Of a stretch of DNA of 64,000 nucleotides, positions 1 through 56,341 are shown one piece after another; position 1 is the first letter of the stretch; each line of letters starts with the position of its first letter. A program made the position numbers and the translations under genes. The notes under the pieces were generated by a model, which was given only the letters and a program-made list of their open reading frames with translations, searched no databases and was not told the origin of the DNA. This stretch comes from Chiloscyllium plagiosum (lineage: Eukaryota): positions 93,964,039-94,028,038 of the forward strand of contig NC_057718.1 in assembly GCF_004010195.1 (NCBI RefSeq), written 5' to 3'.

Positions 1-19
1 CGGGCTGGAAGTTTTTGTT

Positions 20-59
20 GCAAACGTTTCGTCCCCTGTCTAGGTGACATCATCAGTGC
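20..59 (-). ncRNA. minimal hammerhead ribozyme motif (family C)
   Basis: Reverse complement reads gca-CTGATGA-t-gtcacct-agac-aggggac-GAAACGTT-tgc. Confidence 0.75.
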
Positions 60-546
60 TTGGGAGCCTCCTGCGAAGCGCTTCTTTGTTGTTTCCTCCG
101 GTGTTTATAGTGGTTTGTCCCTGCCGCTTCCGGTTGTGAGTTTCAGCTGTCCGCTGTAGTGGTTGGTATGTTGGGTCCAGGTCAATGTGTTTGTTGTTGG
201 AGTTTGTGGATGAATGCCATGCCTCTTGGAATTCCCTGGCTGTTCTCTGTCTGGCTTGCCCTATGATAGTAGTGTTGTTCCAGTCAAATTCATGTTGCTT
301 GTTGTCGCAGACATGAATTCGACTGGGACAACACTACTATCATAGGGCAAGTCAGACAGAGAACAGCCAGGGAATTCCTAGAGGCATGGCATTCATCCAC
401 AAACTCCATCAACAAACACATCGACCTGGACCCAATATACCAACCACTACAGCGGACAGCTGAAACTGACAACCGGAAGCGGCAGGGACAGACCACTATA
501 AACACCGGAGGAAACATCAAAGAAGCGCTTCGCAGGAGGCTCCCAA

Positions 547-586
547 GCACTGATGATGTTGCCTAGCCAGGGGACGAAACGTTTGC
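547..586 (+). ncRNA. minimal hammerhead ribozyme motif (family C)
   Basis: gca-CTGATGA-t-gttgcct-agcc-aggggac-GAAACGTT-tgc; stem I gca/tgc, palindromic ACGT in place of stem III. Confidence 0.75.
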
Positions 587-660
587 AACAAAAACTTCCA
601 GCTCGGCGAACAGAACCACAACAACAAGCACCCGAGCTACAAATCTTCGTACAAACTTTG

Positions 661-7239: not shown

Positions 7240-7860
7240 ACGTGCTTTCGTGCAGTGTCTTTTCGAGCGCCAGGAAGTTGCAAAGTGTTTCTTGAAGCAC
7301 TTATTGAGGTGTAATCACTGCTGTAATGTAGGAAAGGTGGCAGTCAATTTCCACACAGTGCACCCTTACAGCAATGTTGATAAAGGCCAGATAATTATCC
7401 AGAGATGTTGGTTGAGGAATAAATGTTGACCAGGATCAATATTAACCACAATTTTAATTTTGCCCTGCTTCAAATGAGTGTGTGGACTCTTTCACTCTGA
7501 AAATATTACAGGTGGGCCTCAAATTAATACCTTGTCTAAGGGAGCCATGATGTGGCGGAGCCAGTGTTAGACTGGGGTGGACAAAACTAAAAATCACACA
7601 ACACCAGGTTATAGTCCAACAGGTTTATTTGGAAGCACTAGCTTTTGGAGTGCTGCCTGATTGAAGGAGCAGCACTCTGAAAGCTAGTGCTCCCAAATGA
7701 ACCTGTTGGATTATAACCTGTTGTGTGATTTTTAACTTTGTCTAAAGGGGAACACCTCTGACAGTGCAGCACTCCCTCAGCACTGCACTGGGATGGCAAT
7801 CTAACTTTTTTTCTAAAGGCTAAGAAGAGAGCTCGAACTCACTGTGAATGTCACCATTGA
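7240..7860 (-). mobile_element. DeuSINE-like (SacSINE1/AmnSINE-type) SINE, interrupted by a PLE
   Basis: Motifs gtaatcactgctgtaatgtaggaaa, gatgttggttgaggaataaatgttgaccagga, cacctctgacagtgcagcactccctcagcactgcactggga. Confidence 0.65.
7546..7741. mobile_element. PLE family B fold-back element with degenerate hammerheads
   Basis: aaaatcacacaacaccaggttatagtccaacaggtttatttggaagcactagc mirrored by gctagtgctcccaaatgaacctgttggattataacctgttgtgtgatttt; ttgtctaa repeated at the flanks. Confidence 0.8.
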
Positions 7861-13624: not shown

Positions 13625-14075
13625 TGTTTCCTCCGGTGCTCTTCCTACAGTCCAAAGATGCGCAGGTTAGGTGGCTTGGCTATTGGAAATACCTCCATAG
13701 TGTCCAGGAGTGTGCAAGCTAGGTAGTTAGCCATGGGGAATACAGGGATGGGGTAGGTCTGGGTGGGATGCTCTTCTGAGTGTCAATGTGGGCTAGATAG
13801 GCTGAATAGAGCTGAAAATGTGTTGCTAGAAAGGCGCAGCAGGTCAGGCAGCATCCAAGGAGCAGGAGAATCGATGTTTCGGGCATGAGCCCTTCTTCAG
13901 CCTTTCCTGAAGAAGGGCTCTTGCCCAAAACGTCGATTCTCCTGCTCCTTGGATGCTGCCTGACCTGCTGCGCTTTTCCAGCAACACATTTTCAGCTCTG
14001 ATCTCCAGCATCTGCAGTCCTCACTTTCTCCTAGATAGGCTGAATAGCCTGCTTCCACACTGTATGGATTCTGTG
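13625..14075 (+). mobile_element. HE1-type V-SINE 3' part, split by a PLE palindrome
   Basis: tttcctccggtgctc...cagtccaaagatgcgcaggttaggtgg...gcctgcttccacactgta. Confidence 0.85.
13810..14030. mobile_element. PLE family A fold-back element, two opposed hammerhead motifs
   Basis: Arms of ~85 bp centred near 13893; 17-bp TSD ctagataggctgaatag at 13793-13809 and 14031-14047. Confidence 0.92.
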
Positions 14076-20676: not shown

Positions 20677-20816
20677 CTGAAGAAGCCCTTCCTGAAGAAG
20701 GGCTTATGCCCGAAACGTCGATTCTCCTGTTCCCTGGATGCTGCCTGACCTGCTGCACTTTTCCAGCAACACATTTTCAGCTCTGATCTCCAGCATCTGC
20801 AGTCCTCACTTTCTCC
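20677..20816 (+). mobile_element. PLE family A single arm inserted in CR1 RT
   Basis: 13-bp TSD tccatgagatctc at 20664-20676 and 20817-20829. Confidence 0.92.
20690..20721 (+). ncRNA. minimal hammerhead ribozyme motif (family A), intact core
   Basis: tc-CTGAAGA-a-gggc-ttat-gccc-GAAACGTC-ga. Confidence 0.8.
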
Positions 20817-26097: not shown

Positions 26098-27888
26098 CAA
26101 TGCTTCCTGACCTGCTGAGCATTTCTGGTATTTTCTATTTCAAGCATTCACTGTGTTTTCCCTTAGTAATACTGTTCTTTTATGTTATTGTCACCATTCC
26201 TTTTTCCCTGAAAAATAGGCCATTGGTTGGGTCATGACCCAATCTAAACGTTGTGGGAAGCAGTTCATCAAATTCAGCGTATTTCACTTCCCCAGATATT
26301 TTCTAATTGACCTGACCAGGGTGTTATTTCACACATCTGAAGCAGGAGGGTCTTGAACTCAGGTCTCCTGGCTTAGAGGTAAGGACACTACCACTGTGCC
26401 ACAAAAGCATAGGGCTGCCTTCTCATGAGAGAGAGAGAGAGAGACACTGGTGTTTGTTTAACCATACCTCAGCCAAGGGGTAAAATTGAGAAGGAGACTC
26501 CTTCATTGTAATCTTAGCCAGTCTGGGAATGAAGAGAATTTCCTACATTAATTGAGATATGTGATTGATTAGATCCTCGCCTTTCATCTCTGGGACCTAA
26601 GTTCGTAATCTCGGCTCATGGAATGAAACTGGCCCTCGTTCATTAGTTGCTAATGCCATTGGGCAGTGTCCCAGTGGACAAGGGTTTACAACACAATAAA
26701 TCAGCAATAAGTGAGCAATATCAGACACAAAGCCTATAAGATGGCTGGAATGAAAGAAAGGAAAGGTGTCTTACTGATGCCTTAGAAGATGCCTTGCCTT
26801 GAGATCAAGTATTGAAGCAGAGGGAGCTCTGTAACTATCTCCCCTATGAGATGACTAATGATCTGACAATATAAAATAAAAATTCCTGCTGCAATATACC
26901 ACAATCAAGGACAAGAACTGTAAGATGACAGAAATAATCACATAAGCAACTAAGAAAAAGAGGAAACATTTTGGTTAAGGATTTGAAAATGACAAGACAT
27001 TAATTCAAGTATTTGCACTCTGGGCATTTAGTCCAAATCAACTGAGAGGGAGGTAAAATATATATCATGTACAATGATGCAATCAGAATTAGGGTTTCGT
27101 ACTTGAAATAATACAACTACTTATATGTTGTGAGTTTTGTCAAATGTGACATTCATTGAGCATTTCTAGATATTAGCTGTGAGGACTCTATCTATAATTA
27201 AAAAAAAGAATGAGAGCAGAATGGACTGGAGTGGAGTGGGGAAGGAGTTTAGCAGCAAAGATCAATGGCAGACATTTAAGATTATAGTTCATGGCCATGA
27301 TGAACGCATATTTTAGTGAGGAAGAAGGATACTGGGAAGAGGATAAGCCAATCACGGTTAACCAGGGATGTTAAGGCTAGTATCAGATTGAAACAAAAAA
27401 GATACAATGTGGCAATGGTTAGTGGTAAGCTTGGGGATTGGTAAAATTTAAAAACCAACAGAAAATAAAAAAAGGGAGAAAGTAAACTTTGAGTGTAAAC
27501 TTGCAAGTAATATCGAAACAGATGGCAAGAGCTTCTTTAAATATATAAAAAGGAGAGGACCCAAAATGACCGTTGGGCTCCTTAGAGAATCAGACTGGGG
27601 CCATCAAAATGGGGAACCACTAAATGGCAGAGGAGTCAAATAAATACATTGTATCAGTCTTCACTGCAGAACACACTATAAGTATCCCAAAATGACTAAA
27701 TATTCAAGTGGTAAATGGACCGGAAATAAATACAGCCGCTATCGTTACATAAAAAATGCAAGGGAACCTAAAGGAGATAAAGACCATTACGTCCCTTGGA
27801 CCTGATGGAATGCTCAAAGTTTGTGCGAAGATTTGTAGCTCGGGTGCTCGTTGTTGTGGTTCTGTTCGCCGAGCTGGAAGTTTTTGTT

Positions 27889-27928
27889 GCAAACGTTTCG
27901 TCCCCTGGCTAGGCGACATCATCAGTGC
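27889..27928 (-). ncRNA. minimal hammerhead ribozyme motif (family C)
   Basis: Reverse complement gca-CTGATGA-t-gtcgcct-agcc-aggggac-GAAACGTT-tgc. Confidence 0.78.
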
Positions 27929-28118
27929 TTGGGAGCCTTCTGCGAAGCGCTTCTTTGATGTTTCCTCCGGTGTTTATAGTGGTCTGTCCCTGCCGCTTCC
28001 GGTTGTCAGTTTCAGCTGTCCGCTATAGTGGTTGGTATATTGGGTCCAGGTCGATGTGTTTGTTGATGGAGTTTGTGGATGAATGCCATGCCTCTAGGAA
28101 TTCCCTGGCTGTTCTCTG

Positions 28119-28613: not shown

Positions 28614-28965
28614 AAACACTATATAGGACAAACAGGGAGACAGCTAACAATCCGCATACATGAACATCAACTAGCCACGAAATGACACGACCAGCTATCC
28701 TTAGTAGCCACACACGCAGACAACAAGCAACATGAATTCGACTGGGACAACACTACTATCATAGGGCAAGCCAGACAGAGAACAGCCAGGGAATTCCTAG
28801 AGACATGGCATTCATCCACAAACTCCATCAACAAACACATCGACCTGGACCCAATATACCAGCCACTACAGCGGACAGCTGAAACTGACAACCGGAAGCG
28901 GCAGGGACAGACCACTATAAACACCGGAGGAAACATCAAAGAAGCGCTTCGCAGGAGGCTCCCAA

Positions 28966-29005
28966 GCACTGATGATGTCGCCTAGCCAGGGGACGAAACG
29001 TTTGC
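28966..29005 (+). ncRNA. minimal hammerhead ribozyme motif (family C)
   Basis: gca-CTGATGA-t-gtcgcct-agcc-aggggac-GAAACGTT-tgc. Confidence 0.78.
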
Positions 29006-29214
29006 AACAAAAACTTCCAGCTCGGCGAACAGAACCACAACAACTGATGGAATGCATTGTGGGATATTGTGGGTAGCATTTACAGATATGATAGATGTGT
29101 TGGTGGTAAACATTCAGAAATTCTTTGATCCTGGAAAGGTCCCAGAGGATTGCCAGCGAAACACCTTTATTTAGAAAGAAAAGGTGATTAATAAGCTTAA
29201 TGTCTGTTATTGTG

Positions 29215-31420: not shown

Positions 31421-31874
31421 GGTCTAGTAGGGCATGTGCAACATTGTGAAGGTGTGAAAAAATCCACTGTTAATGCTTGGCTATACCCAAAGCAAATACT
31501 TGGTATTGCTCTTGGAAGACTTGCCAGAGTAGGAGAGCACAATTGCCATGAGAAACAACACTGGGATGCCCATCTATTCAGGGATTGGCTCTCAGATGTG
31601 GCTTTGTTTGGCAGGCCTTAGGGATCGGATGGATAACAAGGGGAGGGATGTGGTTCCTTGGCTTGGTTAGTAAGGCAGCCATAATGCCTTGGAAGGAAAG
31701 GAAACTCAGCTCATCCTTAGAGCCCAGGCCCCAGGTGGGCACCCTCCAATGAGCCAATATCAAAATACGGTAATGGGCCCAGTAAACTCCTCATGACCTG
31801 TCCATTTACAGAGAGATGGAAATGTGTTGCTGGAAAAGCGCAGCAGGTCAGGCAGCATCTAGGGAACAGGAGAA

Positions 31875-31906
31875 TCGACGTTTCGGGCATTAGCCCTTCT
31901 TCAGGA
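31875..31906 (-). ncRNA. minimal hammerhead ribozyme motif (family A)
   Basis: Reverse complement tc-CTGAAGA-a-gggc-taat-gccc-GAAACGTC-ga. Confidence 0.8.
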
Positions 31907-31914
31907 ATCAGAAT

Positions 31915-31946
31915 TCCTGAAGAAGGGCTAATGCCCGAAACGTCGA
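31915..31946 (+). ncRNA. minimal hammerhead ribozyme motif (family A)
   Basis: tc-CTGAAGA-a-gggc-taat-gccc-GAAACGTC-ga. Confidence 0.8.
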
Positions 31947-32965
31947 TTCTCCTGTTCCCTAGATGCTGCCTGTCCTGCTGCGCTTTTCCAGCAACACATT
32001 TCCATCTCTGATCTCCAGCATCTGCAGACCTCACTTTCCCCATTTACAGAGAGGCCAGGGCCAGAAGAACTCAGAGCGTCATTTATCCCAAGCATCCATT
32101 TCCCAAAGAGACCATCAGGAAATACCCAGACAAATCTGGGATCCAGGAAATCAGGGCAGCAAACCCAAGGTGTTGCTGTTCTGTTATAATCTCACTGGAG
32201 CTATGATGCAAATGTTCCGGGAAAAACAATGGATTTTTGGTGCGATAGTAAATAGCTTCTGTCAACACCTCAGTGCACTGCAACTGCAGGTTGTTGTTGC
32301 TTTGAATTTACCCAGGGGACCAGCCATAGCAATGCCAGAGCTGATCAATTAATGCCACCATTATAATGATTGCATTACAATAATACAGTTTTCATTGCAC
32401 TCATTTAAATCAATCAGCCTTTTGAACTTGGCTGGCAATTATTTGTCCTTGGAGCTTTATTACATTTGGCCATTTAGTATGGTTTCAGCTGCATAATGCT
32501 GTTCCCTTAACCAATTGTGTTGGGCACATTTTCCAGTCACTCTCCTTATGATCTAATTGATTCTTTGTTTACTCCGTTCCCCGCCCTTTCTAATATTCTC
32601 AGCCATCAATATTATTGCCAGCTGTGGTTTATGCCAGGTGCTTATTCTCCCATCAATAAAAATTAACCATTCCAGACTGTACCAGCCCACCCTTAGCATT
32701 ACTTCCTGTGATTTTCCTCCCACACCATCAGTCCTGACCAGGATATAAGAACCACACCTGATTGAAAATCTCATTCTAACCCGTCCCTTTCTCTCCTTGG
32801 TAACCTGCCCCACCCTGCCCCATGATATGAGTATTAATCGGGCTACTCCGCCTCTATACTCTCCTCTGTTAGCCCTGGCACTCCACAAAGAAAAATAATC
32901 TTGCTCTCTCCTGCATTCTGTTTCTCCTTATCTTTGCAAAAGGACAACAACAACCTTGCGTTTAA

Positions 32966-33365
32966 ATGATTTGGAGGTGCTGTTGTTTGACTGGGGTGGA
33001 CAAATTTAAAAATCGCACAACACCAGGTTACAGTCCAACGGGTTTATTTGGAAGCACTAGCCTTCGAGGTACTGCCTCTTCATCAGGTGTTTGTGGAACA
33101 GGACCATAAAACACAGAATTTATAGCAAAGGGTTTCAGTGTCATAGGGCTGTAATGATATAATTAAACAAATGATATATTAAAAATAAGCCAAATTTATT
33201 CAATATATCATTATAGCTGCATGACACTGTAACCCTTTTGCTATAAATTCTGAGTCATATGGTCATATTCCACAACCACCTGATGAAGGAGCAGCGCTCC
33301 AAAAGCTAGTGCTTCCAAAAATCCTGTTGGATTATAACCTGGTGTTGCGTGATTTTTAACTTTGC
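32966..33365. mobile_element. PLE family B large fold-back (~170-bp arms)
   Basis: 33000-33170 mirrors 33195-33365. Hammerhead-like cttcatcaggtg (minus) and cacctgatgaaggagcagcgctccaaaagctagtg (plus). Confidence 0.88.
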
Positions 33366-42766: not shown

Positions 42767-42941
42767 CGATGTGGAGGTGCCGGTGTTGGACTGAAGTGGA
42801 CAAGGTCAGAAGTCACACAAATCCAGGATGTAGTCCCAACAGGTTTATTTGAAATCACAAGCTTTTGGAGCGCTGCTCCTTCATCAGGTGATTTCAAATA
42901 AACCTATTGGACTGCAACCTGGTGTTGTGTGACTTCTCATT
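42767..42941. mobile_element. PLE family B fold-back inside a DeuSINE-like element (~42700-43255)
   Basis: ggagcgctgctccttcatcaggtg (minus hammerhead) with a mirrored aaacctattggactgcaacctggtgttgtgtgac arm; ttacagcaa at 42758-42766 and 42942-42950. Confidence 0.85.
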
Positions 42942-44587: not shown

Positions 44588-45068
44588 TTGTATAATATAT
44601 CCAAGTCATACAAATATTAATTGACATAATCTTATCTCCATGAAGGCATTTAGAGCTCTCAACTGTCGACGTACGCACTCGGCCCTAGCCTGGAGTCTGG
44701 GTTAGATTCAACATATAATTTCTCCAAGTCAAGGGTGTGGGGCTGGAAAAGCACAGCTGGTCAGGCAGCATCCGAGGAGCAAGAGAATTGATGTTTTGGG
44801 CAAGAGCCCTTCTTCAGGAACCATTCCTGATGAAGGACTCTTGCCTGAAATGTCAATTCTCCTGCTCCTTGGATGCTGCCTGACCAGCTGTGCCTTTCCA
44901 GCACCACTCTCTCGACCTTGATCTCCAGTTTCTGCAGTCCTCACTTTCTCTGATATAATTTGTCCAAGGCAACTTTTTAAAAGTAACTTCTTTAATATTT
45001 CTCTCTTATGCACAAATTAGACAGGCATATGTCAATTAATATTTGTATAACTTGGATGTATTATACAA
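44588..45068. repeat. 41-bp inverted repeat pair
   Basis: 44588-44628 versus 45028-45068, 39/41 complementary. Confidence 0.85.
44729..44952. mobile_element. PLE family A fold-back element
   Basis: Arms centred near 44821; TSD atataattt(c/g)tccaag at 44713-44728 and 44953-44968. Confidence 0.9.
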
Positions 45069-56209: not shown

Positions 56210-56341
56210 TTCATTCCTGAAGAAGGGCTTATGCCCGAAACGTCGATTCTCCTGCTCCTTGGATGCTGCCTGACCTGCTGCGCTTTTCCGGCAACACATT
56301 TTTCAGCTCTGATCTCCAGCATCTGCAGTCCTCACTTTCTC
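56210..56341 (+). mobile_element. young PLE family A single arm
   Basis: 13-bp TSD cgccaactgagac at 56197-56209 and 56342-56354. Confidence 0.93.
56215..56246 (+). ncRNA. minimal hammerhead ribozyme motif (family A), intact core
   Basis: tc-CTGAAGA-a-gggc-ttat-gccc-GAAACGTC-ga. Confidence 0.8.

Follow-up and report, generated by a model that had tools for sequence, protein, structure and literature searches.

The 224-bp insert at positions 31816–32039 of the window, by which we mean the whole 64-kb stretch of Chiloscyllium plagiosum DNA analysed here (host genome of 3.56 Gb), arose by a recent insertion of the 5' part of a Penelope-type element (PLE). We consider it probable that this fold-back and its many relatives each arose in one insertion event from twin-primed cDNAs, which would have started at two internal sites of the RNA, run off at its probably capped 5' end and been end-joined. 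The architecture as such is already published (PMC8557442, PMC3846280).

The focal fold-back and its neighbours in the window

All element positions are counted from +1, the A of ATTCC at window position 31913, which lies 4 bases 5' of the hammerhead core CUGAAGA. The focal fold-back is enclosed by identical 14-bp target site duplications (TSDs), and its inverted arm pairs with the direct arm starting at 31913 over 93 bp with one mismatch (Table 1). The insert is predicted to fold as one hairpin of −203 kcal/mol (z −27), and none of 200 shuffles was equally stable. The last bases of the left TSD also match the element template, so that the tail-less arm shows microhomology where its outer end meets the TSD. 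We infer that this arm is a cDNA primed by the top target strand and that the tailed arm represents the first-strand cDNA. The first C of the CAGA filler between them is likely the complement of an untemplated G at −1, i.e., of a copied cap.

A contig of sequencing run X5, which carries the same organism label and comes from another study, joins position 31801 to 32040 with one TSD copy and has 73 and 561 letters on either side of the join, so that the focal insertion is real and likely polymorphic within the species. Contigs of run X1 enter the element only 21 and 18 nt from its flanks, too short to bridge it, and no sequencing record among those listed spanned the whole element. The TSD-flanked, near-perfect palindrome described in the first-pass annotation is thus confirmed by its arms, its TSDs and the empty site. 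Many copies in the genome contain gaps of the short-read type, as might be expected if the palindromes were assembly artefacts, but the chance of this is negligible in view of the empty allele, the TSDs, the mismatches between arms and the varied centres. Raw RNA reads point the same way, as 11 of them (10 starts) contain a strand switch at +1, though library artefacts can mimic such joints.

Table 1. Fold-backs, arms and related features located in the window.
Feature	Position	Strand	Remark
Left TSD, 14 bp	31802..31815	+	Single copy in the empty allele of run X5
Tail-less inverted arm, element +1..+93	31816..31908	-	Outer end within the +91..+99 cluster
Minimal type I hammerhead core	31877..31904	-	Core pattern match
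Junction filler CAGA, 4 nt	31909..31912		Focal centre
Tailed arm, element +1..+127; putative 5' end of the PLE transcript, with the ORF lying downstream	31913..32039	+	
Minimal hammerhead core	31917..31944	+	Core pattern match
One-sided PLE tail, 34 nt, unpaired	32006..32039	+	As long as the interval between the two putative RT starts
Right TSD, 14 bp	32040..32053	+	Identical to the left copy
Second fold-back, related subfamily, older than the focal one	13793..14047		Arms +5..+97 and +2..+130; TSD of 17 bp (13793-13809/14031-14047); cores decayed
Third fold-back, oldest of the three	44713..44968		TSD of 16 bp with 1 mismatch (44713-44728/44953-44968); cores decayed
Single-arm copy starting at +2	20689..20813	+	13-bp TSD; preceded by a short, partial duplicate of the core
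Single-arm copy starting near -2	56211..56339	+	13-bp TSD

The same design had been suggested for 13810–14030 and 44729–44952. Both places indeed harbor a palindrome with TSDs of its own, but the intact hammerheads expected there were not found, as none of the four arms matched the core pattern. Two intact cores are kept only by the focal locus among the three fold-backs. Apart from these, another family with hammerheads, whose helix II is longer, is present in the window (1–605, 27805–28118 and 28719–29044) and probably belongs to another PLE clade; its piece at 1–605 folds back on itself, each arm measuring about 295 bp (95%). Further fold-backs of other hammerhead-like families were noted at 7580–7742, 33001–33364 and 42808–42937, the one at 33001–33364 having a long, AT-rich inner part.

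Source element and hammerhead ribozymes

The 30 best matches of the arm included single arms, fold-backs of several lengths and copies running upstream into a 3' UTR. Longer copies revealed a GIY-YIG endonuclease domain upstream of the unit (PF01541, E-value of 8.5e-5, 23.2 bits at a cut-off of 22.6), which is accompanied by a CCHH-type motif with CxxC before YIG and two later His residues. On the other side, an ORF starts near +166, downstream of +130. One copy (L213) displays the order unit, ORF, unread interior, 3' UTR, unit, and another one (L211) likewise carries units on both sides of the ORF; the interiors of young long copies read N. A CX4CxxC linker was identified in the older relatives L076, L065, and L097, and an older related copy with the linker was 87% identical over 54 aa. 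Linkers of the type CX2-5CxxC before the endonuclease mark the clades Neptune and Nematis (PMC8557442). RT-like motifs in L097, an older related copy that is frameshifted, were read by eye only; Pfam detected no RT domain in its frameshifted pieces and gave no match to the N-terminal ORF parts.

Based on the endonuclease upstream, the ORF downstream and the linker, the unit appears to derive from an autonomous PLE of Neptune type, of which it forms the pLTR and 5' end. As judged from these sequence features, its first 93–127 nt are what the arms consist of, and the source is an endonuclease-bearing element of Neptune type, the linker being a trait also shared with Nematis. Altogether, the following features of EN+ PLEs were found: a C-terminal GIY-YIG with CCHH motif, pLTRs flanking the ORF, a one-sided tail of 30–40 bp with TSD and, by motif and helix II, a minimal type I hammerhead in the pLTR. 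The PLE origin proposed in the first-pass annotation therefore holds by virtue of the endonuclease upstream of the unit and the ORF start downstream, as do its minimal hammerheads, whose motif and helix II were both found in the arms.

The core of the ribozyme comprises CUGAAGA, a helix II of GGGC/GCCC, GAAA and a palindromic ACGU helix III, with a predicted cut after GUC at +32. The focal core pattern matched four times in the 64-kb window and never in 100 shuffles; an Rfam scan of the window at the gathering threshold resulted in no match. Minimal PLE hammerheads with a palindromic helix III need dimerisation and cleave poorly in vitro (PMC4209133). In the predicted fold of the whole fold-back transcript, the cores were paired with a probability >0.99 and formed no helix II, which a single arm does form. 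As had been surmised, the hairpin is thus predicted to mask the ribozyme, and the hammerheads of fold-backs would be locked in the hairpin of a read-through transcript.

Hammerhead-cut RNA was also considered as the main template and rejected, as a hand tally of the first 100 of 769 asymmetric junctions listed showed no peak at +33 (one junction at +33, five at +31..+36). In three older fold-backs (L120, L131, and L154), one of the arms begins at +33, which hints weakly at an occasional copying of cut RNA.

Ends of the fold-backs and the proposed insertion reaction

For the analysis of ends, we used a young set of 37 loci, which was obtained from 45 pairs of at least 88% identity by dropping duplicates (by TSD sequence) and pairs without TSD, 18 older pairs having been filtered earlier; inner ends in this set were partly selected by the search patterns. 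TSD lengths ranged from 13 to 19 bp. In all 37 fold-backs, the tail-less arm ended at +91..+99 (mode 94) and the tailed arm at +127..+141 (mode 130). The tailed start site itself (+118..+133, e.g., in L198) lies in a pyrimidine tract, which ends in CAG in some copies and resembles a splice acceptor.

The two arms are independent in several respects. At 10 of the 37 loci, the tail-less arm extends beyond the tailed arm by 3 nt or more on the 5' side (6 loci show the reverse and 21 are level); at three loci (L087, L098, and L126), the arms barely overlap or do not overlap at all, and tail-less single copies with TSD exist as well (L169 and L180). This further reach, the lack of overlap and the solo occurrence indicate that the tail-less arm was not copied from the tailed one. 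Moreover, its microhomology to the TSD averaged 1.4 nt compared to 0.58 nt in 5000 shuffles (p 0.0002, 35 of the 37 loci). All this, including the fixed outer end of the tail-less arm, makes it unlikely that a single cDNA or antisense template folded back and copied itself into the inverted arm, a self-priming that has been proposed for inverted PLE arms (PMC3846280). Such a snap-back would account for the single haplotype shared by the arms of a locus, and the common asymmetric junctions would fit the 3' end of a cDNA annealing to its own stem-II region.

With regard to their source, arms diverged by 2.0% within loci and by 3.6% between loci, and rare variants were shared within loci. Loop markers were discordant at 44 loci, compared to 409 and 2824 concordant ones. 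Two templates from different subfamilies were rejected as an explanation for the discordant loci, since all 16 inspected cases turned out to be point changes, deletions or truncations on a non-TAAT background, and none was a subfamily chimera. On the strength of these comparisons, both cDNAs stem either from a single RNA or from sister RNAs with a common source. The earlier claim that the arms were copied from one template can thus be kept in the sense of one source haplotype. Priming from one RNA would imply that the RT displaces its own cDNA.

Two loci deserve separate mention. One long fold-back (L011:1500-2560) has arms that differ, by eye, at several linked positions of the 3' UTR, and it shows no visible TSD; possibly two different templates or a nested insertion are involved. 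Another (L065:1547-1720) is tail-less, with both arms ending near +92–96; no TSD was found there. Just outside this fold-back, the outer end of the arm is repeated as a short copy.

The inner ends were just as sharply bounded. Among the first 100 of 6347 TAAT-type arms listed, a hand tally placed 61 inner ends at +6..−4 and none at −5..−11, the remaining 39 arms continuing upstream, all of them with C at −1. Among the first 100 of 323 loci listed with A at −2, a requirement that excludes templated upstream sequence, a hand tally of the base at −1 gave 47 G, 29 C, 21 A and 3 T. G thus made up 47 of the 71 non-C bases, compared to 28% expected (p 4e-11). A master copy with G at −1 was rejected, as none of 39 long copies carries it. 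Of 30 G loci examined, three (L164, L166, and L170) revealed a clean TSD followed by G or AG and the element start. In at least five (L158, L168, L181, L173, and L183), the G was shared with either the TSD or the second arm, and elsewhere it was part of filler, so the excess is partly a matter of microhomology, which would be favoured by a cap-derived base. The sequence surrounding +1 agrees with YYANWYY, the initiator consensus. An untemplated extra G marks capped full-length insertions of L1 and SVA (PMC11702581, PMC3287187), and the pLTR of D. virilis Penelope contains an internal TATA-less promoter (PMC2377424).

Poly(A) single-cell reads covered the unit on both strands hundreds-fold, compared to 1–3-fold in the ORF. 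No pile-up of read starts was seen in these reads; they are mostly read-through of scattered copies, with 95% running into unrelated sequence, and base changes in them may equally be variants between copies. Independent evidence for +1 as a physical RNA end came from the 12 top-ranking ORF-start loci (L195–L206). In 11 of them (10 of 11 if the locus of the query is left out), a 5' ORF fragment ending at +385..+648 is fused without any spacer to another unit at its +1..+3, a share that gaps in long copies may inflate. Six of the 11 fused loci had a TSD, and the joins often involved a short microhomology. These loci are likely template jumps after run-off, which suggests how partial tandems arise. 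Taken together, we infer from the positions of these ends that +1 is the transcription start and the extra G a copied cap.

Alternatively, the stop at +1 might be set by RNA processing or structure, namely by a ribozyme cut, a splice boundary or the base of helix I. The 5' strand of helix I falls on position +1, an intron end of D. virilis maps to the 5' end of this helix (PMC4209133), and among older copies of the 1-Mb sample, three of the 14 inner ends lying past +20 were at +33, the predicted cut. This cut is nevertheless 32 nt away from +1 and was met at a single one of the 100 asymmetric junctions tallied above. In addition, the sequence upstream of +1 is CTC or CCC, without an AG acceptor, and a cut or spliced end would add no G. 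We therefore regard a stop of this kind as improbable and retain the transcription start.

The reading that we prefer starts with an RT/GIY-YIG protein, which, following known PLE biology, would nick both target strands about 14–15 nt apart and so give rise to the TSD. The two arms are observed to start near +130 and near +94, respectively, which leaves a tail of 30–40 nt; two priming sites on the RNA would be the enzymatic cause of these ends. For most arms, the observed copy runs to +6..−4, where the cDNAs would have reached the transcription start and copied the cap as G. Finally, the two cDNA 3' ends would be joined by host end-joining; the fold-back centres carry microhomologies of 1–4 nt or short fillers. 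Twin priming and cap run-off with subsequent joining or jump are, as far as genomic ends can tell, well supported.

Whether two-sided priming is even the default mode of PLE integration appears evenly balanced to us. Each half of an enzyme dimer would then serve one target strand and one RNA start (+130 or +94), and uncut capped RNA would be copied to its first base. Depending on whether the cDNA end meets its twin or the target or jumps downstream, a fold-back, a solo stub or a partial tandem would result. If true, one reaction would explain inverted pLTRs, the tail and the regeneration of pLTRs without hammerhead cleavage making the template.

Probably separate products and comparison with known systems

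Abundance was estimated by sampling contigs C1–C12 at fixed steps, with 100 stretches of 10 kb each (959,905 readable bases). The sample contained 26 close fold-backs and 81 unpaired arms, along with 10 distant pairs that are unverified. Extrapolation from this 0.96-Mb sample suggests roughly 1e5 fold-backs among 4e5 insertions. By exact patterns, 409 TAAT-type and 2824 TT-type fold-backs (TTAT group) are centred just before the core, and 769 TAAT-type ones are asymmetric. The arm variants that had been called private to the focal locus are rather subfamily markers: the arm was matched at 99% at six other loci, and the TAAT-loop pattern had 6347 matches genome-wide.

The first-pass annotation further regarded the units as a non-autonomous class, and a family replicating as a whole palindrome would fit their density of about 27 close fold-backs per Mb as well as the recurrence of their centres. 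Among the first 50 of the 409 TAAT-type loci listed, a hand tally gave 12 centres of the GGAATCC type and 10 of the type GGAATTCC; 3 and 2 loci share two other centres, and 23 centres were unique. However, the same common centres recur in the TTAT group. The focal centre was found at 9 loci, which span the TAAT, TTAT, and TCAT subfamilies and have different tail-less ends (+93..+99), and of 7 resolved ones, 4 have the centre oriented one way relative to the tail and 3 the other way. Centres shared across subfamilies, outer ends and both orientations speak for a recurring hotspot and not for descent from a palindromic master, and a symmetric joining hotspot can explain them. By analogy, the units would also lack the sequence downstream of the RT start that the Anolis element PAc needs for binding (PMC11167929). 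Replication as a unit is therefore largely refuted, and we consider it very unlikely. Sharing of palindrome centres between loci had been proposed as a check on the family question, unique centres being taken as a sign of one-off by-products. Centres do recur between loci, yet their uniqueness cannot decide the matter, since they are often shared through recurrence, and a test based on haplotype and orientation was used in its place.

There is a gradual transition from the short units to longer 5'-truncated copies, which contain 3' UTR and endonuclease, and likewise to long fold-backs. Most likely, the thousands of fold-backs were each made separately, and the units are likely dead ends. What they offer is a genome with thousands of young, cleanly bounded products, which give exact predictions for an existing in vitro PLE assay: starts near +130 and +94 on opposite strands, an RNA 5' end at +1, a cap copied as G and jumps after run-off. 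If the hairpins, roughly 1e5 by extrapolation, are transcribed, double-stranded RNA would also arise from them in large amounts.

The PLE cycle has been called 'still undefined' (PMC8557442), and no obvious mechanism was seen for pLTR regeneration (PMC2377424). Our literature search, which covered few subscription papers and no Repbase/Dfam entries or supplements, did not find cap run-off or twin priming for PLEs. Insertion units of EN+ PLEs are described with an inverted, 5'-truncated pLTR, a one-sided tail of 30–40 bp and a TSD, and the accessible portions of these papers leave the mechanism open or propose self-priming (PMC3846280, PMC8557442). The units studied here resemble them in the head-to-head inverted copy, the one-sided tail of 34 nt, the TSD and the minimal hammerhead in the pLTR, as well as in the C-terminal GIY-YIG and the Neptune/Nematis-type linker in relatives. 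In contrast, both halves comprise only the first 93–127 nt and are ORF-less, in roughly 1e5 units by extrapolation.

With PAc, a Poseidon element of Anolis, both target strands were cut and extended in vitro and uncut RNA served as the main template, with two internal RT start sites bounding the tail (PMC11167929). Two putative sites bound the tail here as well, but they lie on opposite sides of the insertion, whereas PAc, a member of another clade, showed no strand bias in its start site. Also, priming by PAc needed no homology in vitro, compared to the microhomology in our fold-backs (PMC11167929). In twin priming of LINE-1, the second target end primes by microhomology, the TSD is preserved and the junction is end-joined (PMC11702581). 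Microhomology at the second end, TSD, end-joining and the extra G at the full-length 5' end are all shared with our units (PMC11702581, PMC3287187). L1 inversions, however, combine adjacent RNA segments with 1–10 bp of overlap or gap, whereas both cDNAs here copy the same segment to the 5' end, which results in a palindrome.

Dual minimal hammerheads on opposite strands are known from Schistosoma as well, where they lie 100–700 bp apart and are tied to truncated PLEs (PMC4209133); the accessible portion of that paper, unlike the present study, holds no analysis of TSDs, junctions or origin. Non-LTR retrozymes, finally, are likewise ORF-less, PLE-derived and equipped with a type I hammerhead (bioRxiv 10.64898/2026.07.22.740005). 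They are defined by head-to-tail tandem units each with a hammerhead, whereas the units of this study are arranged head-to-head, with no descent among them.
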